The notes under the pieces are model-generated. The model was not told where the DNA came from. It ran no database searches and was given only the letters and a program-made list of their open reading frames with translations. Both the position numbers and the translations under genes were made by a program. 64,000 bases of DNA, taken from the NCBI GenBank assembly GCA_943348815.1, contig CALQYT010000001.1, forward strand, positions 12,488 through 76,487, in the 5' to 3' direction. Source of the DNA: Candidatus Nomurabacteria bacterium (GTDB lineage: Bacteria > Patescibacteriota > Minisyncoccia > Phycocordibacterales > SBAW01). Shown piece by piece: positions 1 through 6,245 of this stretch; positions within the stretch are counted from its first letter, which is position 1, and each line of letters begins with the position of its first letter.

Positions 1-577
1 CTTGCGTGTCAGACCGCACGTTGCGCTTGGCCGAACCAGGGCCAAAGTTATCCTCGGCTATTTTGAGCGTGGTCACATTCGCCATGTATTTGTTGAGATC
101 TCCTTCGTTGAGATCTTTAACCAGCACATCGAACTCGGCCCGCGCCTTTTCAAAGTCGTACCTGCTGCCTCCTCTTTCTTTGCCTTTCGTGGCTTGAGAT
201 AACCGTTCCGCACGCACATCAAATGCATCGTTAAAGAATGAAGCTTCTTGTTGTGCCAACTCTAACTGGCCCGCTTCTGTTTTAGCATATTGCTTTTCTA
301 TACCCAGGTGTTTGGCATGACCGGTCTTGCGGCCAGGGAAACCCTTGTGTCTATACTCCATTTGGTCAGGACGTATAGACTCACGAAAAATTTTAAACGC
401 TTTTACTGCCGCACCAATAAGGCCCGGTTCACCCGACTGGTTGGCCTTTACCCAACGATCCCGGATAGCTCGGTATTCTTCCAGTTTGGCTTTTAGATCG
501 GGACTTATATCAGACTTGTGAGCTCGTTGATGCTCGTCTTTCGAATAAGCACCCGTAAATTCAGGACGGAAATTCAT
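1..577 (-). CDS. hypothetical protein, partial (3' end lies beyond the window start)
   Basis: Reverse-strand frame is open from an ATG at 577..575 (MNFRPEFTGAYSKDEHQRAH...) through position 1 with no stop. It is absent from the ORF track, which appears to list only ORFs with an in-window stop. Confidence 0.5.
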   Translation of the reverse strand, partial: MNFRPEFTGAYSKDEHQRAHKSDISPDLKAKLEEYRAIRDRWVKANQSGEPGLIGAAVKAFKIFRESIRPDQMEYRHKGFPGRKTGHAKHLGIEKQYAKTEAGQLELAQQEASFFNDAFDVRAERLSQATKGKERGGSRYDFEKARAEFDVLVKDLNEGDLNKYMANVTTLKIAEDNFGPGSAKRNVRSDTQ

Positions 578-761
578 GTAAAAAATGATTAACTACTATG
601 AGCCAATTGTTGCAACTCCCCTCCAAATTGCAAGGCAACACAAAGGACAACCAAAATACGCCTCTATACCAATACTTTTGCGCCCCAGTTCGTGGGAAAC
701 CTCGAACCCGGGTGTCCACATGTCGCAGGAAACTCTGAGATACCCGGTGTAGTATTTCGGT

Positions 762-1493
762 ATGACAAAAAACTTGGGAAATGCGGGACCCTCTAGACGC
801 AACTTCCTACAAGGACTCGGGGCAGCGGCAGCGATCGTGACAGCTGGTGAATTACTAACCAATTCCGCGGAAGCACAGGAAGCTATTGAATCGCAAGAAA
901 ATAAAATTCCTTCAGTGCAGGAAATTGATACTATGACCCGAGAAACTCTTTCCACCCTGCGAAAGCAGGACAAGAGTATATGGGTTGAAAACGCGAGCGA
1001 CGAGCTTAGGAAGCGGATATTTGGCGGAAGCGACGTATCGGCAGGTATCCTGGCTTATTCCGATGGGACATCTGGTCAGGATATTTACACTCTGCTGAAT
1101 CGACGGAGGAACCAGGCGACATCACTACCCACGTCTGATCTCGTACACCAGATGGTTGAAAAACTTGATAGTGAACTCAAAAATGCCGAGACGTTGAAAA
1201 ACGACGCCCTGCAGTTACACAACACTTATCTAGTAGAGAGCCGGACGTTCTTCCGAAAAGTCGATTCTGCACTTGACCTGGAACTCAGAGCACAAAAACT
1301 TAAGGAGCAGGCTGCAAAGCTTAAGAATATTCCCGGCCTAAATGCAGATACTCTGCAAGGGCAAGGTGAGCCCGAACGTATCGATACTCTCCCAGCGTCT
1401 GAGCAAGTACGCGAAGCTGCACTTGCACTTGCTCGTGCGAATGACAAGTTACTCGAATTGCGGACCAAGTATTTACGGGACGAGCAGAGGTAG
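762..1493 (+). CDS. secreted coiled-coil protein with twin-arginine (Tat) signal peptide
   Basis: N-terminus MTKNLGNAGPSRRNFLQGLGAAAAIVTAG carries an SRRxFLx motif followed by a hydrophobic stretch. The remainder is charged and coiled-coil-like. Confidence 0.6.
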   Translation: MTKNLGNAGPSRRNFLQGLGAAAAIVTAGELLTNSAEAQEAIESQENKIPSVQEIDTMTRETLSTLRKQDKSIWVENASDELRKRIFGGSDVSAGILAYSDGTSGQDIYTLLNRRRNQATSLPTSDLVHQMVEKLDSELKNAETLKNDALQLHNTYLVESRTFFRKVDSALDLELRAQKLKEQAAKLKNIPGLNADTLQGQGEPERIDTLPASEQVREAALALARANDKLLELRTKYLRDEQR

Positions 1494-1520
1494 CTAAAAA
1501 TGCATTTTCCCCGAAACTTG

Positions 1521-1566
1521 TCCCTTCGGTAGGAATCGAACCTGCATCAACGGCTTAGAAGTCCGC
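1521..1566 (-). pseudogene. tRNA 3'-half fragment (anticodon arm + T-arm + 3' acceptor strand) with Arg-TCT-like anticodon loop
   Basis: Minus-strand read GCGGA-CTTCTAA-GCCGT-TGAT-GCAGG-TTCGATT-CCTAC-CGAAGGG-A has a T-loop GTTCGATTC and the same anticodon loop as the intact tRNA downstream. No complementary 5' acceptor strand or D-arm can be found upstream. Confidence 0.35.
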
Positions 1567-1577
1567 CACTACCCAAG

Positions 1578-1621
1578 CCGACGCTTCGGTCGGTTCCCCG
1601 ACCCGCTTTGCGGCGTCGGGG
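1578..1621. repeat. two adjacent GC-rich palindromic hairpin repeats (CCGAC-GCTTCG-GTCGG and CCCCGAC-CCGCTTTGCGGC-GTCGGGG)
   Basis: Perfect 5-bp and 7-bp stems read directly from the sequence. The same CCCCGAC...GTCGGGG motif recurs at 1998..2021, 10446..10482 and 13835..13854. Confidence 0.6.
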
Positions 1622-1638
1622 TTGAACTATTCTCTCCA

Positions 1639-1710
1639 TGCCCCCGCGAGGAGTCGAACCTCGAATAGCGGCTTAGAAGTCCGCAGTTATATCCGTTTAA
1701 CTACAGGGGC
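1639..1710 (-). tRNA. tRNA-Arg (anticodon TCT)
   Basis: 72-nt cloverleaf on the minus strand. Acceptor stem GCCCCTG pairs with CGGGGGC; D-arm GTTA/AACGGATA/TAAC; anticodon stem GCGGA/GCCGC with loop CTTCTAA; T-arm CGAGG-TTCGACT-CCTCG; discriminator A. CCA is not encoded. Confidence 0.85.
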
Positions 1711-1971
1711 TTATGGTTCAAGTCTAATGTATCCTTCTTTTATCATTTTCTCAATGTAGTCTTTCCGTTTAAGTCTCTTTATTTTACGTTCAACCGAACG
1801 TGCTTCTTTAAGAGTTTTATACTCTTGACTTAATAAAAGTTTCTTCACACCAAAATTTGCCGTGGTGTAGGTGTGTCCGAGCTCATGTTGTCTAAGACGT
1901 TTCTTAAGATCATGAGTACTGCCTATGTAATATCTCCCTACATTGGTTTCCAAAATGTATACCCAAGCCAT
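1711..1971 (-). CDS. GIY-YIG domain nuclease family protein (YhbQ/UPF0213-like, 86 aa)
   Basis: MAWVYILETNVGRYYIGSTHDLKKRLRQH is a GIY-YIG signature. Start is at the internal ATG at 1971..1969. The TAA stop at 1713..1711 directly abuts the tRNA +1 nucleotide at 1710. Confidence 0.8.
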   Translation of the reverse strand: MAWVYILETNVGRYYIGSTHDLKKRLRQHELGHTYTTANFGVKKLLLSQEYKTLKEARSVERKIKRLKRKDYIEKMIKEGYIRLEP

Positions 1972-1997
1972 AAATACTGAGAGGAGTTGGGTGCAAG

Positions 1998-2021
1998 CCC
2001 CGACGCACAAAGTGGTCGGGG
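1998..2021. repeat. palindromic hairpin repeat CCCCGAC-GCACAAAGTG-GTCGGGG
   Basis: 7-bp perfect stem. Lies immediately upstream of the GIY-YIG start codon. Confidence 0.55.
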
Positions 2022-2036
2022 AGCCGACTCGCCCAA

Positions 2037-2651
2037 CTAGAATAGTTGGGGCAGAACGTCGGCTCGCACCATAGCATATATGATAGCAAGCACCAGCACG
2101 AAGATGCTCACCCACAAGAAATAGCGCTTGATAAACACCAGCGCCTCGGCGCCAAAGCGGTGCGTAAGGTAGACAAAGAGCGCCATGCGGATGCCGCGGC
2201 CAAGCACATAGCCCAAAAAGTATGGCACAAAGTGTACGCCCAAAAATCCGCCGGCATAAATAAATACTTTGTCCGGTATTGGCGTAAACGACGCAACCGC
2301 CATCGCCAAAAATACGTGGCCCATAATATAGTGCCGCGCCATGCGGAAAGCTCCCTGCAGGTTATAAAACGCCAAAATCGGCTCGCCGAATTGTTTAAAC
2401 AAAAATGCGGCGACAAAGTAGCCGGTTGCTGCACCCAATGCGGAGCAAGTGATGGCGACGGCGAGGTAAGAGCGGGCGCGCTCTTTGTGCGCGAGCGTAA
2501 GGGCTACCAAAAATATCTCCGGCGCCACGGGGAAAAAGAGTGCATCGGTAAACGAAATGAGCCCGAGCCACCAGAGTGCATGGGGCCGTTGTGCCTGTAG
2601 CACAAACCACGCCCACCATCGCTCTTGCCAGAGCTTGAAGTAATTCTCCAT
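2037..2651 (-). CDS. YqaA/DedA-family (VTT domain) membrane protein
   Basis: Polytopic membrane protein. The motif ...VFLAMAVASFTPIPDKVFIYAGG... is typical of the YqaA/DedA family. Confidence 0.6.
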   Translation of the reverse strand: MENYFKLWQERWWAWFVLQAQRPHALWWLGLISFTDALFFPVAPEIFLVALTLAHKERARSYLAVAITCSALGAATGYFVAAFLFKQFGEPILAFYNLQGAFRMARHYIMGHVFLAMAVASFTPIPDKVFIYAGGFLGVHFVPYFLGYVLGRGIRMALFVYLTHRFGAEALVFIKRYFLWVSIFVLVLAIIYAMVRADVLPQLF

Positions 2652-2658
2652 ATCTTAT

Positions 2659-2988
2659 TTAACGCACGCGCGAGCCGGGGGTTGCGGCCGGGGCCTCCAA
2701 AATTGCAAACGGCGTTTCGCCATCTCCCCCAACTGCCAAGATCATTGCTTGGCTCTCAAGACCCATAATCGAGCGGGGCTCGAGGTTGGTCGCAAAGGCA
2801 AACTTTTTGCCGACTATTTCTTCTAATTTTACAAATTTGGCGATGCCGGAGATAACTTGTCTTTCTTCCGTACCAAAACTGACACGCAGCTTGAGCAACT
2901 TCTCCGAGCCCTCAACCGGCTCGGCCGCAAGTATCTCCCCTACTTGCATTTCGGCTTTTTTAAATTCGTCGATAGTGATATTAGTCAT
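2659..2988 (-). CDS. csaA: tRNA-binding protein CsaA/Trbp111 (EMAP/Myf domain)
   Basis: MTNITIDEFKKAEMQVGEILAAEPVEGSEKLLKLRVSFGTEERQVISGIAKFV...AFATNLEPRSIMGLESQAMILAVG matches the tRNA-binding OB-fold family. Start is at the internal ATG at 2988. Confidence 0.75.
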   Translation of the reverse strand: MTNITIDEFKKAEMQVGEILAAEPVEGSEKLLKLRVSFGTEERQVISGIAKFVKLEEIVGKKFAFATNLEPRSIMGLESQAMILAVGGDGETPFAILEAPAATPGSRVR

Positions 2989-3514
2989 TGCGTTTTTGAA
3001 GTGCCTCGCGTGCATCAAGGATAGTAGCACGTACCAACTCCGGATCGGGCACTTGTTTAAACGTTATCTTTTCATGCGCGCCGGCGGTCTCGACCGCAAC
3101 ATCACCAAAGTTAAAGAAAGTTGGGATAAGACCGTTGAGTGTGGTTGTCACATCCTCTACTCGCTCGACCGGTGCCTCAACCACCGTGTGAGCAAAAAAG
3201 CCCTGCTGCTGGCTGTCGAGTACGCGGTGGTTAGTAACTATCCAGTAATCAAGCGCGTAGAGCGTGAGTTGATAAAACAACAGGTGCCAGCCGGCAATAA
3301 CCAAGAGCAAAATCCCCAAGCCCACCACGCGTGCTAACCCTGACGCGACGATGTCGGGGTAAAAGAAAATAATCACCGCTGCCACCACTATCACAAAGAA
3401 CAGAAGTTGCAATCCTATCCCCACAAATACCCACCAGTGCCGGCGCAGCAACAAAAGTACGTGTTCTTCTGACCGTTGGCCCTCAAAACTATTTCTTGAT
3501 TTAAAAAGTGACAT
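2981..3514 (-). CDS. membrane protein with bacterial PH (bPH_2/YdbT-like) domain
   Basis: Two N-terminal TM helices followed by ...YWIVTNHRVL..., typical of the bPH_2 family. Start at the ATG at 3514 (MSLFKSR); 8-bp overlap with csaA. Confidence 0.5.
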   Translation of the reverse strand: MSLFKSRNSFEGQRSEEHVLLLLRRHWWVFVGIGLQLLFFVIVVAAVIIFFYPDIVASGLARVVGLGILLLVIAGWHLLFYQLTLYALDYWIVTNHRVLDSQQQGFFAHTVVEAPVERVEDVTTTLNGLIPTFFNFGDVAVETAGAHEKITFKQVPDPELVRATILDAREALQKRND

Positions 3515-3515
3515 A

Positions 3516-3725
3516 TTACAGGGGGAGCACCGCGCTAAAATCAACGGCTAAAAAAAATATGCCAAAGACCATCATCAACAGCACCGAGCCGGTGAGGTAT
3601 ACCGCCGCAAGCAGCTTGGGCAAACTCCCCACCCCAAAGCGGATGAGGTGGTAGAGCGCCACAAACATAAAAATAGCCTGTGCGAGCAGGAGAACCAGGA
3701 GTATCAGGGGCGGAAGGTAGGCCAT
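3516..3725 (-). CDS. small membrane protein (69 aa, two TM helices)
   Basis: Start at internal ATG 3725 (MAYLPPLILLVLLL...). Hydrophobic throughout and tightly packed against neighbouring genes. Confidence 0.4.
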   Translation of the reverse strand: MAYLPPLILLVLLLAQAIFMFVALYHLIRFGVGSLPKLLAAVYLTGSVLLMMVFGIFFLAVDFSAVLPL

Positions 3726-3735
3726 GAGGGTTATT

Positions 3736-4152
3736 TTACACGCCCTGGGCCCTATCGAGATAGCTCTGGAGTATGAGCGCCGCGGCCGAGGCGTCGAGGT
3801 TATCGTGCGCCGGGTTTTGCTTGCGCGAATTTTCTTCGGGCGCAAATTGTCGCGCCGCGAGCGCGGAGGTAAAAAACTCACGTTCGTACTCTACGGGGAG
3901 GCCCGCAAGATCGCCCAAATCTTTTTTAAATTGCTGGATGTCTTCTTGCACCGGATTATCTTCGCCTTGCAAGCCGCGCGACTCGCCTAAAATTACTTTT
4001 TCTACCTCCTCTTTTTTTATCAGTTCGACTATGGCCGAAAGTGCTTCCCTATCGGCGGCAATCACCGTGCGGGGGAAAGCAATTTTGCCATCCTGGTCAG
4101 ACACGGCAATGCCAATCTTTTTCGTCCCGTAATCTATCCCTAAATACCGCAT
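3736..4152 (-). CDS. ruvX: Holliday-junction resolvase-like protein RuvX/YqgF
   Basis: MRYLGIDYGTKKIGIAVSD... is a RuvX signature. Start at ATG 4152..4150. Confidence 0.85.
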   Translation of the reverse strand: MRYLGIDYGTKKIGIAVSDQDGKIAFPRTVIAADREALSAIVELIKKEEVEKVILGESRGLQGEDNPVQEDIQQFKKDLGDLAGLPVEYEREFFTSALAARQFAPEENSRKQNPAHDNLDASAAALILQSYLDRAQGV

Positions 4153-4240
4153 TGGTGTAGCATAGCAAACATTGGAGGGGTGGCAGACCACCGCCTACGG
4201 CGGGGCCTCGCCAAAGGCGATGGGTGGTCTACAAAACAAG

Positions 4241-4522
4241 ATGTACTTTGCATACATTCTACAGAGCAAAACCAGTGGCCGATATTATATAGGATCTACT
4301 CAAGATCTAGAGAACCGGCTGAAACAACACAATCGTGGTTCAAATAAATCCACACGCCCCTACCGCCCCTGGCAGCTCGTATACTCTGAATCTTTCCCGG
4401 ACAAAAAATCAGCATGGTTGCGCGAACAACAGATAAAAAGATATAAAGGCGGAGAAGCGTTCCACCGCTTGCTTCGGGATCCCGTCGAAGGCGGTGATAA
4501 AAAGCTTATAATAAACGCGTAA
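4241..4522 (+). CDS. GIY-YIG domain nuclease family protein (94 aa)
   Basis: MYFAYILQSKTSGRYYIGSTQDLENRLKQHN is a GIY-YIG signature. The TAA stop at 4520..4522 directly abuts tRNA-Ser +1 at 4523. Confidence 0.8.
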   Translation: MYFAYILQSKTSGRYYIGSTQDLENRLKQHNRGSNKSTRPYRPWQLVYSESFPDKKSAWLREQQIKRYKGGEAFHRLLRDPVEGGDKKLIINA

Positions 4523-4610
4523 GGAGGGATGGCAGAGTGGTCTATCGCACCGCACTTGAAATGCGGCGTACCGCAAGGTACCGGAGGTTCGAATCCTCCT
4601 CCCTCCGCCA
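4523..4610 (+). tRNA. tRNA-Ser (anticodon TGA), CCA encoded
   Basis: Acceptor stem GGAGGGA pairs with TCCCTCC. Anticodon stem CCGCA/TGCGG with loop CTTGAAA. Long variable arm CGTACCGCAAGGTAC is class II. T-arm CGGAG-GTTCGAATC-CTCCT; discriminator G followed by CCA. Confidence 0.9.
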
Positions 4611-6104
4611 AAATTCGGAATTCAAATTTCCGCCAAAAATATGGTCGGCGCGAAGCGCCGTCTGTTCTGCATTCCCCCCACAAAATCCTGATTCTGCAAG
4701 GATTCGCCACGCTCCGCGTGGCTCAAAAAAGACGGTTCGATCCTTAATTTGAAAGTTCGAACCGACTTTTTTGTACAAATGAATTTTTTCTTCATTTGTA
4801 CACTCGTTTGCCAATTCCACATTGAATTTCAAAAACTTTTCCGTAAGTTCGAACCGATTATTCGCTTTTTGCTCAAAAGCCGATAATTTCTCTTTGAGAA
4901 GCTGTTTTTGATTAACCAACGCACTTTTAGCGTCCCGATATTCCTCTAGTGAAAGTGCGTTCTCTAGGTAAGCGTTCATCAGCTTCTCAATCTTGGAATC
5001 CAAAAGAGAAATGTCTGCTTTTGTTTTGTCTGCAAAAAGCGTAGACGATTGGGCTTCCACCAATTTGTCTTTTTCGTTTTCCGCCAACATCCATTTAGCC
5101 CAATCGTCTGGCAAAGAAACTTTTTTGATTTCTTTTTGAATTTCGGAAGTGATGATTTCCTCACGAGTATATTTTTGTGAACAAGGATTTTTCCGCTTGG
5201 TACATCGTAAATAGTTATGACCTTTTTGTGTTTCGGTGGTAATAAAACATCCACATTCTCCACAACGGAAAAATCCTCTATACAAAAATGGTTTCAGTCC
5301 TTTCGGGTGAGGTTTAGATTTCCTCATCATCACTTCTTGAACAGAATCAAAAAGTTTCTTTGAAATAATCGGTTCGTGTTTGCCTTCGTGGATTTCACCG
5401 TTATACAACATTAAACCTGTGTATATCGGATTTTTCAAAAGTTTTTGATAATTCGACACCGCAAGTTCCTTTCCGCTTTTTCGTTTCAATCCAAGTTCGT
5501 TAAATTTGTCACGGAGCTGTCTCAAAGTGAAAGACCCAGACGAATATGCCTCAAATGTTTTCTTGATTAAAGGTGCGATACTTTCATCAACGACAATTTT
5601 CCCGCCCTCGTTTATATATCCGAGTGGAGACATTTGAGGCCATATACCGTCTTTCACTTTGTTTCTTTTTCCACGCTTGATATTCTCCGACAAATTGTCC
5701 ACATAATACTTGGATTGCGAAAAAGCGATTGAGAGCATGAATTTGCCTTGCGGTGTCGGATCACACCAGAAAGTTGGAAATTTTAGCTCGGCAATTTTTC
5801 CCGTATCGAGCAAATATATTATCTTTCCACCATCAACACTATTTCTCGCTAACCTATCGGGATGCCACGCTAAAATTCCGCTTGCCTCATTTTGCTCGAT
5901 ACGAAGAAGCATTTCATTAAATACTGGCCGACCCGGAACTTTAGCAGTTTGTTTTTCAACGAAGATATCTACAACTTCAATATTCTCTTTGAGGGCGAGA
6001 GATTTTAATTCGGCCAGTTGGTCTGAAATGCTTCTAACTTGCCGATCTTCAGTATCGGTAGATTTTCTTGTATATATGAAAAACTTTCTGGTGTGATTAT
6101 TCAT
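4542..6104 (-). CDS. large serine recombinase (resolvase/integrase family) with zinc-ribbon domain
   Basis: N-terminal FFIYTRKSTDTEDRQ...SISDQ is a serine-recombinase catalytic motif. Followed by a recombinase domain, a CGECGC...C zinc ribbon and a coiled-coil. The reading frame has no stop before running through IR-A into the tRNA, so the true C-terminus is uncertain. Confidence 0.85.
   Translation of the reverse strand: MNNHTRKFFIYTRKSTDTEDRQVRSISDQLAELKSLALKENIEVVDIFVEKQTAKVPGRPVFNEMLLRIEQNEASGILAWHPDRLARNSVDGGKIIYLLDTGKIAELKFPTFWCDPTPQGKFMLSIAFSQSKYYVDNLSENIKRGKRNKVKDGIWPQMSPLGYINEGGKIVVDESIAPLIKKTFEAYSSGSFTLRQLRDKFNELGLKRKSGKELAVSNYQKLLKNPIYTGLMLYNGEIHEGKHEPIISKKLFDSVQEVMMRKSKPHPKGLKPFLYRGFFRCGECGCFITTETQKGHNYLRCTKRKNPCSQKYTREEIITSEIQKEIKKVSLPDDWAKWMLAENEKDKLVEAQSSTLFADKTKADISLLDSKIEKLMNAYLENALSLEEYRDAKSALVNQKQLLKEKLSAFEQKANNRFELTEKFLKFNVELANECTNEEKIHLYKKVGSNFQIKDRTVFFEPRGAWRILAESGFCGGNAEQTALRADHIFGGNLNSEFWRREEDSNLRYLAVRRISSAVR
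4605..4724. repeat. inverted repeat A (120 bp, perfect partner at 6126..6245)
   Basis: The reverse complement of 4605..4724 is identical to 6126..6245 by hand alignment. Its first 6 nt (CCGCCA) are the 3' end of tRNA-Ser. Confidence 0.85.
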
Positions 6105-6125: not shown

Positions 6126-6245
6126 GAGCCACGCGGAGCGTGGCGAATCCTTGCAGAATCAGGATTTTGTGGGGGGAATGCAGAACAGACGGCGCTTCGC
6201 GCCGACCATATTTTTGGCGGAAATTTGAATTCCGAATTTTGGCGG
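6126..6245. repeat. inverted repeat B (partner of A)
   Basis: Identical to the reverse complement of 4605..4724. Confidence 0.85.

Follow-up and report, generated by a model that had tools for sequence, protein, structure and literature searches.

Why should part of a transfer RNA (tRNA) gene lie beside an intact gene with the same anticodon, the two separated by palindromic DNA? A 64,000-nucleotide (nt) stretch from a Candidatus Nomurabacteria bacterium (GenBank contig CALQYT010000001.1, positions 12,488 to 76,487; the whole 64-kilobase (kb) stretch is called the window) raises this question: on its minus strand, an intact tRNA-Arg(TCT) gene is followed, after a hairpin-bearing gap of 72 nt, by a partial copy of a tRNA-Arg(TCT) gene. 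The initial annotation took the partial copy for a duplicate of its neighbor, left behind by an element that had integrated at the tRNA 3' end. We consider it fairly probable that this remnant and the octamer TAGTTCAA beyond the hairpins are together a dead second tRNA-Arg(TCT) gene whose D-loop was interrupted by a double hairpin, that is, the scar of a recurrent family of GIY-YIG cassettes. With comparable confidence, we place this family in Patescibacteria (Paceibacteria, Adlerbacteria-like) and describe its members as an 86–93-amino acid (aa) stand-alone, Slx1-like GIY-YIG gene located immediately 5' of a working tRNA gene and accompanied by one or two pairs of GC hairpins that always lie within tRNA D-arm sequence. 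The cassette looks like an undescribed tRNA-targeting mobile element.

Loci compared with the window are labeled Lnnn (e.g., L019); type A denotes the kind of tRNA-Arg(TCT) represented by the intact gene in the window, and type B the kind represented by the remnant.

Results

Anatomy of the tRNA-Arg(TCT) remnant

The features of the intact gene, the hairpins, and the remnant are:

1639..1710, minus strand: intact functional tRNA-Arg(TCT), type A (ARAGORN; Rfam tRNA model, 57.7 bits)
1638..1630, minus strand: junction of 9 nt, TGGAGAGAA, that connects the intact tRNA to the pseudo-tRNA module (from the sequence)
1629..1622, minus strand: octamer TAGTTCAA, a copy of tRNA nt 8–15 (U8, 5' D-stem strand, D-loop) directly 5' of the double hairpin
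1596..1621, minus strand: hairpin 1, CCCCGAC-GCCGCAAAGCGG-GTCGGGG (pattern search; DNA fold)
1595..1577, minus strand: hairpin 2, AACCGAC-CGAAGC-GTCGGC, with CCGAC-CGAAGC-GTCGG at 1578–1593
1521..1576, minus strand: pseudo-tRNA-Arg(TCT), type B, tRNA nt ~16–73 (56 nt, D-loop to discriminator base), made up of the six parts that follow
1576..1567, minus strand: D-loop and 3' D-strand TTGGGTAGTG
1566..1550, minus strand: anticodon arm GCGGA-CTTCTAA-GCCGT
1549..1546, minus strand: variable loop TGAT
1545..1529, minus strand: T-arm GCAGG-TTCGATT-CCTAC, with one C·A mismatch
1528..1522, minus strand: 3' acceptor strand CGAAGGG
1521, minus strand: discriminator A

Read along the minus strand, the octamer TAGTTCAA is followed by the hairpin pair, by TT-GGGTAGTG, and by the remaining tRNA, that is, the hairpins are located at tRNA position ~15/16. 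Much of what the initial annotation had described was recovered: the intact gene at 1710..1639 is the only tRNA that ARAGORN calls in the region, both GC-rich hairpins were found by pattern search and in the DNA fold, and the 3' acceptor strand is present. Other details required revision. The segment that had been given as 46 nt does share its anticodon arm with the intact gene, but it is 56 nt long and starts in the D-loop; the 5' acceptor strand is absent, as noted, but the D-arm, also reported as missing, is partly present and split by the hairpins; and the T-arm that had been called good has one mismatch in its stem (GCAGG/CCTAC). The 16-nt anticodon arm GCGGACTTCTAAGCCG occurs in exactly two copies, both on the minus strand (1551–1566 and 1669–1684; chance expectation, 0.04), and a repeat finder extends this match to 36 nt at 83% identity (1531–1566 vs 1649–1684).

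The tRNA homology of the remnant is clear, and its cloverleaf is incomplete; the segment is a pseudogene. The Rfam tRNA model gives a partial match of 20.5 bits at 1525–1581 (minus strand), below its gathering score of 29, and ARAGORN finds no bacterial cloverleaf at the remnant with thresholds lowered to -ps90, -ps80, or -ps70 or in intron mode. A complete cloverleaf with another 5' boundary, which would have made the segment a second full tRNA gene, was not found; the sole relaxed ARAGORN call, a metazoan-mitochondrial D-armless fold, recruits the 3' arm of hairpin 2 as its 5/7 acceptor strand. In silico removal of the hairpins still yields no tRNA call because no 5' acceptor strand exists: the missing strand CCCTTCGTAG (CCCTTCG; ≤2 mismatches allowed) is not found within 1.5 kb. 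A chimera of nt 1–15 of the intact gene and the stub is also not called as a tRNA. We rejected an intron-containing or split/permuted tRNA gene, since there is no 5' acceptor strand, no Rfam match to a group I or group II intron, and nothing credible in the intron mode of ARAGORN. The stub itself is most likely inert, that is, without function.

The remnant and the neighboring gene compared

The anticodon arm (16 nt) is the only part common to the remnant and the intact gene; their T-arms and acceptor strands differ, and only 40 of 56 positions (71%) are identical overall. Functional tRNA-Arg(TCT) genes from other loci match the remnant at 51/56 positions (91%; L010), at 50/56 positions (89%; L015), and with 88% identity (L019), and the 3' half of the remnant has two differences from the working gene of L019. 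These comparisons indicate that the remnant is not a duplicate of the neighboring gene, contrary to the initial annotation; because it is 91% identical to the L010 tRNA vs 71% to its neighbor, the stub appears to be a foreign or older tRNA-Arg(TCT) allele. The intact gene, in turn, is 92–94% identical to the tRNA-Arg(TCT) genes of L007, L008, and L018 (94% for L007 and L018).

Two further ideas about these sequences were discarded. We dropped the proposal that the TTAAA D-loop of type A marks an immune allele: the inner tRNAs of the Arg-GCG loci retain the TTCAA/TGGATAG site. Two Logan contigs that end at window position 1683, inside the anticodon arm, were considered as a recombination junction and judged uninformative because tRNA sequence common to members of a community suffices to break assemblies.

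GIY-YIG genes adjoining tRNA genes in the window

The first base of the intact tRNA-Arg(TCT) gene directly adjoins the stop codon of an open reading frame (ORF) with a GIY-YIG catalytic domain, so the element that the initial annotation regarded as gone still has a gene in place. This gene, its leader, and the related modules elsewhere in the window are:

1711..1971, minus strand: 86-aa stand-alone GIY-YIG gene (UPF0213/bacterial Slx1-like), the protein component of the cassette (Pfam PF01541, E 2e-13)
1999..2063, minus strand: double hairpin 5' of the GIY-YIG gene (its leader), in the opposite orientation to the trailer pair (inverted repeat I5)
4174..4240, plus strand: leader of a second cassette, with a copy of tRNA-Ser nt 1–14 (GGAGGGGTGGCAGA), hairpins CCGCC/GGCGG and TCGCC/GGCGA, and D-loop nt ~15–23 (GTGGTCTAC)
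4241..4522, plus strand: second GIY-YIG gene, encoding 93 aa with 36% identity to the first and ending in a stop codon that adjoins tRNA-Ser(TGA) at 4523–4610
10445..10481, plus strand: solo double hairpin GCCGAC..GTCGGC TC TCCGAC..GTCGGA with no GIY-YIG gene, 3 nt upstream of tRNA-Arg(GCG) at 10485–10557

The 86-aa protein consists of the GIY-YIG domain alone, with no further domain, and its ORF lies outside any intron. Its nearest solved relatives, in a phmmer search of the PDB, are the UPF0213 proteins 1zg2 (E 3.8e-5) and 1ywl (E 8e-3); TIGR01453 matches weakly, and in the N-terminal motif only. Stand-alone GIY-YIG proteins of ~85–105 aa, including BH0048 and EF2693, are assigned to the bacterial Slx1-like/UPF0213 group, and their eukaryotic relative Slx1 is a structure-specific endonuclease (PMC1564403); given that specificity, a hairpin substrate would fit.

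Within the first loop of the leader at 1999–2063 are a nested palindrome as well as the final nine codons and the stop codon of the adjacent DedA/VTT-domain gene. The end of that gene (2037–2063) lies inside the leader module and reads ...MVRADVLPQLF* in the window vs ...MVHWHLLGL* in relatives, so that the insertion appears, from the sequences, to have overwritten the last nine codons of its neighbor. The same inverted leader adjoins the DedA gene in L013, L015, and L016. The DedA protein of the window is 52% identical to that of a Candidatus Adlerbacteria metagenome-assembled genome and 66–75% identical to those of Patescibacteria contigs. A scan of genome contigs with this protein returned two loci; the relatives compared here came from a protein search and the contigs of its matches.

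The tRNA-Ser cassette has the same layout as the tRNA-Arg(TCT) cassette but other stems; therefore the hairpin architecture, and not one sequence, accompanies each nuclease subfamily.

Recurrence of the cassette in Patescibacteria

A metagenome scan with the 86-aa protein as the query returned 62 loci. The close homologues (n = 27; 48–67% identity to the query) are from independent metagenomes, and 26 of the 27 immediately precede a tRNA gene in the same orientation, the gap ranging from −10 to +26 nt apart from a single case of 93 nt. Their partners are eight tRNA species (Arg-TCT, Arg-GCG, Arg-CCT, Val-TAC, Asn, Ile, His, and Thr); distant homologues (<45% identity) have no tRNA gene nearby. 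In a neighbor-joining tree of the nucleases, the partner tRNA varies within clades (Arg-TCT/Val/Thr; Asn/Ile/Arg-CCT; Arg-GCG/Arg-CCT), which argues for target switching among tRNA species.

Leader hairpins of the CGAC/GTCG type are present in 25 of 29 cassette loci, and the order in the leader is tRNA nt 1–15, hairpin pair, D-loop continuation, and nuclease ATG (in the Asn, Ile, Thr, and Arg-CCT subfamily, the leader holds tRNA nt 1–10/11 instead of 1–15). The D-loop continuation fits the tRNA encoded downstream in the same locus: GGATAGAA for Arg, GGTAGAG for Val, CTCAAT for Asn, CTCAG for Thr, and GTGGTCTA for Ser. At ~17 loci, including the tRNA-Ser cassette of the window, a 5' stub, that is, a 10–15-nt copy of the 5' end of the tRNA, is found 41–113 nt upstream of the nuclease ORF. 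A 5' stub in L019 (2835–2920) has two double hairpins, located at tRNA positions 7/8 and 15/16.

The trailer form (hairpins and a 3' stub), to which the remnant belongs, occurs in 6 of 29 loci (the window, L019, L023, L026, L027, and L032). Here the order is intact tRNA, 3–14 nt, tRNA nt 8/10–15, hairpin pair, and tRNA nt 16/17 to 62..73. The 3' stubs, which also include one in L076, are copies from tRNA nt 16–19 onward and are located 50–83 nt downstream of the intact tRNA; in L019, L023, L026, and L027, they are 91–100% identical to the adjacent intact tRNA. The octamer/hexamer context that precedes the hairpins in the window is also found in L019, L023, L026, L027, and L032, as well as in the leaders of L017, L018, L026, and L029. 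The junction between the intact tRNA and the trailer differs in every trailer locus (TAAA, TAGA, AAA, TTT, and others).

The insertion sites are polymorphic for the presence of a cassette. In related loci (n = 9), the gene order is DedA, tRNA-Arg(TCT), tRNA-Val(TAC), and pseudouridine synthase, with the two tRNA genes usually 7–100 nt apart. The site between DedA and tRNA-Arg(TCT) is filled in the window, L013, L015, and L016 and empty in L005 and L007–L012, where DedA, tRNA-Arg(TCT), and tRNA-Val are present with no nuclease gene, no tRNA fragment, and no double hairpins; the site before tRNA-Val is filled in L014, L017, L019, and L032.

Distribution of the double hairpins

The initial annotation treated the hairpins as a spacer between the two tRNA sequences; we regard them as a hallmark of the element family. 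In the window, the pattern of hairpin 1 has three matches (none expected), and this hairpin is stable in the DNA fold, including the centroid structure. The 64 kb contain three double-hairpin modules, each beside a tRNA gene, with no recognizable target-site duplication. A hairpin identical to hairpin 2 of the window (GCCGAC-CGAAGC-GTCGGC) is present in L017 and L019. We searched 418 kb of DNA for two consecutive CCGAC..GTCGG hairpins; such pairs occur almost solely in cassette loci, within D-arm sequence. The 65.9 kb from relatives that lack the cassette contain no such pair, nor do the 126 kb that surround the distant homologues.

Leaders without an ORF (solo leaders) are present at 10445–10481 in the window, in L017, and in L024, which keeps the first codons of the ORF. 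By sequence, these look like a decay series of cassettes, and the pair at 10445–10481 is probably the relic of a lost cassette.

Hairpins are also nested in the loops of other hairpins in the leaders of L023, L024, L029, and L034, as if the units insert into one another. A single CCCCGAC-CGAAGC-GTCGGGG hairpin is located within a coding region of the window (13835–13854), and a double hairpin is found in the 3' end of rplS in L013 (7333–7370); the association of the hairpins with tRNA genes is therefore not absolute.

Hairpins that directly follow a tRNA gene, are GC-rich, and have stems conserved across loci could, together with the tRNA-like 3' piece, be a functional RNA signal of the tRNA operon (a terminator, a processing site, or a stabilizing end). 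We regard this as very improbable: neither hairpin is followed by a T-run and a terminator scan finds nothing there, the same hairpins are also found 5' of the ORF and as inverted copies, the fold z-score of the structure is only −1.77, the structure is absent from relatives with the same pair of tRNA genes, and there is no match to an Rfam family.

A more serious alternative, although in our judgment an unlikely one, is that two unrelated events coincided, that is, that a second tRNA-Arg(TCT) gene, tandem or acquired, became redundant and was then hit by an independent double hairpin with a preference for TTCAA, similar to a miniature inverted-repeat transposable element (MITE) or a repetitive extragenic palindrome (REP), and that the GIY-YIG gene is simply a neighbor or a nuclease that acts in trans. 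The solo pairs, the pair in rplS, the nested hairpins, and the single hairpin in a coding region are as expected for an independent element, and the left flanks of the hairpins are mostly ..TCAA or ..TCAG. However, hairpin pairs are absent from the cassette-free DNA and from the surroundings of the distant homologues, whereas 25 of 29 cassette loci have them; nearly every pseudo-copy bears hairpins even though such copies are rare as targets; the breakpoints of the stubs coincide with the position of the hairpins; and the hairpin stems differ between nuclease subfamilies. The nested loci described next also speak against two unrelated events, since their outer pieces make one gene around the cassette.

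Nested insertion in L023 and L027

The outer stubs of L023 are complementary to each other, the 5' one (GCCCTCG) pairing 7/7 with the 3' one (CGAGGGC), and the working tRNA between them has a separate acceptor stem (GGTCCCG/CGGGATC, 7/7). Pairing between the outer pieces is 6/7 in L027, where the inner tRNA again has a different stem (7/7). When the outer pieces are joined in silico, they fold into a clean tRNA-Arg(GCG) cloverleaf. Because the outer pieces pair with each other while the stem of the inner tRNA differs, these sequences indicate a nested insertion: in both loci, a resident tRNA gene was opened at nt ~15/16 and now brackets the hairpins, the nuclease gene, and a second, complete tRNA gene.

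The central part of the 3' stub is nearly the same as the inner tRNA in two loci (L027, 100% over nt 16–63; L026, 96% over nt 17–62), with different ends, which suggests later gene conversion. The same identities might be explained if the nuclease and tRNA unit was amplified locally in tandem and the second nuclease copy was then deleted, as the SegB nuclease of phage T6 yields tandem repeats of tRNA genes and segB via microhomology (PMC13096335); L020, which has two successive 5' stubs with hairpins, also fits this explanation. We nevertheless find tandem amplification improbable. The acceptor strands of the stubs, and usually their T-stems, differ sharply from those of the inner tRNA (window, L023, L026, and L027); in L023 and L027, the acceptor strands of the stubs match the outer 5' stub; and the stub in the window is only 71% identical to the intact gene.

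The 10.5-kb insertion and other neighbors

Metagenome contig L001 is identical to window positions 1–4038 and continues leftward beyond the window. With this extension, we observe an insertion of ~10.5 kb (window 1–1520 and L001 201–10760) between the pseudo-tRNA and tRNA-Val(TAC) that is absent from all related loci; its genes encode a 916-aa TraG/VirD4-like ATPase (phrog_5156, E 8e-65), a DnaJ-domain protein, a 243-aa protein with a twin-arginine translocation (Tat) signal, and several uncharacterized ORFs.

This insertion bears on the proposal of the initial annotation. An element that used the 3' part of tRNA-Arg(TCT) as its attachment site would have duplicated that part (attL/attR) and either been lost later, leaving ~70 bp, or be the 10.5-kb insertion itself. 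This reading is favored by the arrangement, in which the partial copy is 3'-proximal and follows an intact tRNA of the same strand, and by the insertion, which has a TraG/VirD4-like ATPase, starts ≤30 nt from the fragment, and is not found in relatives. Against these points, the copy is not a repeat of the intact 3' end (the anticodon arm alone is common to the two), and the breakpoint lies in the D-loop. No integrase or recombinase domain is found in the 10.5 kb (Pfam, PHROGs), a repeat is found neither beyond the 72-nt gap, which consists of hairpins, nor, for the fragment, at the far end of the island by tRNA-Val, there are no direct repeats across L001, and no short matches connect the ends of the island. 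Furthermore, the fragment is on the tRNA-proximal side of the island, which is the wrong side for a displaced attR, and the same design of hairpins and stub is found in five other GIY-YIG loci. We give an integrase-type footprint very little credence. Two parts of the initial proposal hold: the partial tRNA next to the intact gene is nonfunctional, and its best reading is as a scar from a mobile element that hit a tRNA gene. Integration at the 3' end is not supported, the break being at nt ~15/16 in the D-loop. The 10.5-kb insertion is treated as a separate event in the same hot spot because it has no recombinase and no flanking repeats and because similar stubs occur elsewhere without an island.

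The short interval around tRNA-Arg(TCT) and tRNA-Val is also a hot spot in relatives, where the insertions are different and unrelated (L007, 5738–6250; L010, 5784–6607; L012, 2704–5545; L014, 5643–10053), and tRNA-Val is inverted in L010, L015, and L016.

Adjacent to the second cassette, a perfect 36-nt inverted repeat (4605–4640 and 6210–6245) brackets the gene for a 520-aa large serine recombinase (4542–6104, minus strand). The left arm of the repeat starts in the last 6 nt of tRNA-Ser(TGA), the 3' end of the recombinase gene overlaps the tRNA, and the GC content drops to 0.34–0.45 over ~4.5–9 kb. A large serine recombinase beside tRNA-Ser or tRNA-Arg(CCG) is also found in L013 and L014. 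The segment may be invertible or an integrated element.

Discussion

A proposed mechanism for the scar

In the explanation that we favor, namely a tRNA gene split by a GIY-YIG cassette, the nuclease would break tRNA-gene DNA in the D-arm or at a cruciform that the hairpins could form. Repair from a cassette-bearing template would then copy the hairpins, the nuclease gene, and the working tRNA into the target tRNA gene (homing). The split resident gene would persist as a 5' stub (nt 1–15) upstream and/or a 3' stub (nt ~16–73) downstream, and an intact copy of the single-copy essential tRNA would stay in the cell. Patescibacteria have tiny genomes with single-copy tRNA genes, so an element that breaks tRNA genes and survives must replace them. 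The nuclease gene would ride on the tRNA promoter, with RNase P processing freeing the nuclease transcript from the tRNA. In the window, the type A gene would be the retained or imported working copy, and the type B stub would be the displaced resident gene. A trailer with its 3' stub would form if each of the two broken ends copied a different part of the template before an illegitimate join; with such joining, trailers would be a minority form, and the junction nucleotides would differ from locus to locus.

Several observations weigh against this explanation. In L026, the outer 5' stub corresponds to the inner tRNA instead of the 3' stub (4/7). The window has no outer 5' stub, its inverted leader running directly into the DedA gene, and we argue for nestedness there by analogy with L023 and L027. 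The closest DedA relatives (L007–L009, 75%) have a type A tRNA without any cassette; therefore the intact gene could have been inherited vertically, and the stub could be the import. The protein, whose nuclease activity is predicted, is a catalytic domain only and does not have a DNA-binding domain like those of I-TevI and the Seg enzymes. We found no homologue of the window nuclease between 71% and 100% identity, the same population aside, and thus no before-and-after pair. If the D-arm is the target, the target in the working tRNA would be left intact, and no immunity mechanism is evident. Finally, the model does not account for the hairpins at both junctions or for the fact that the 3' stubs always lack nt 1–7.

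Comparison with known systems

The closest precedent among phages is SegB of T4, a GIY-YIG endonuclease encoded in a tRNA cluster that recognizes the T-psi-C motif, universally conserved in tRNA genes, and drives inheritance of the tRNA region along with its own gene (PMC2330249); in phage T6, SegB generates the tandem repeats mentioned above. The cassette resembles SegB in that a GIY-YIG gene is embedded among tRNA genes. SegB is, however, a full-length homing enzyme with a DNA-binding part, whereas the protein described here is an 86-aa catalytic domain of the Slx1/UPF0213 lineage with predicted activity; the SegB target is the T-psi-C motif, whereas the scars of the cassette are at the D-arm; SegB loci have neither double hairpins nor flanking split pseudo-tRNAs, whereas the cassette loci have both; and the host of SegB is a phage, whereas that of the cassette is a cellular Patescibacteria chromosome.

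In fungal mitochondria, according to work by Paquin and Lang, endonuclease ORFs reportedly insert into essential genes together with a replacement portion, the displaced part becoming a pseudogene (as in Allomyces atp6), and short mobile double-hairpin elements are said to occur near such junctions. The common logic is an endonuclease ORF with a replacement copy that keeps the gene working while the displaced part decays alongside. The mitochondrial ORFs differ in their protein-coding organelle targets, larger endonucleases, and unrelated hairpins; here, the target is a bacterial tRNA gene, and the replacement is a complete tRNA copy.

Islands and prophages with tyrosine integrases are bracketed by an exact repeat of the tRNA 3' end (att) and encode the integrase. 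As in those islands, a tRNA gene is the landing site, function is kept by a replacement part, and a partial copy is left behind; unlike in those islands, the D-loop is the site of the break, the pieces do not repeat one another exactly, and there is no integrase. The palindromes known as REP sequences and bacterial interspersed mosaic elements (BIMEs), MITEs, and Rickettsia-type palindromes are dispersed genome-wide and are linked to REP-associated tyrosine transposases (RAYTs), to other transposases, or to no protein. The cassette hairpins are likewise short GC-rich palindromes in several copies, some nested and some in genes, but the double hairpins in the 64 kb are all beside tRNA genes and co-occur with a GIY-YIG gene.

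Group I introns have been described in tRNA genes of Patescibacteria as self-splicing ribozymes of 184–894 nt located in the anticodon loop of functional tRNAs, with no mention of GIY-YIG genes (PMC13011429). Those introns and the split genes described here share a phylum, and both are interrupted tRNA genes overlooked by standard finders; unlike in those tRNAs, what interrupts the D-loop here is a pair of hairpins spanning 44 nt, and the gene has no 5' acceptor strand and no match to an intron model. Our literature search found no description of GIY-YIG genes adjoining tRNA genes with D-arm hairpins, in Patescibacteria or elsewhere. The logic, in which a free-standing endonuclease gene comes with a replacement for its target and a displaced remnant is left, is known; the combination of a minimal Slx1-like nuclease, cognate double hairpins, and tRNA D-arm targets on a bacterial chromosome appears to be new.

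Implications

We tentatively propose a broader generalization, which we regard as possible although somewhat short of probable: a minimal Slx1-like GIY-YIG nuclease with cognate double hairpins may home into tRNA D-arms, carry or regenerate the tRNA, hop between tRNA species, and be widespread in Patescibacteria, with the hairpins serving as a structure-specific substrate that replaces a DNA-binding domain.

The scars have a practical consequence, in that they yield tRNA fragments and altered 3' ends of neighboring genes that can mislead annotation and the prediction of islands from attachment sites. If the model holds, a bare GIY-YIG catalytic domain and DNA hairpins would suffice for a selfish element, the rearrangement hot spot in the tRNA-Arg(TCT)/tRNA-Val region of these bacteria would be explained, and the large orphan UPF0213/Slx1-like family would gain a concrete role and a testable substrate.

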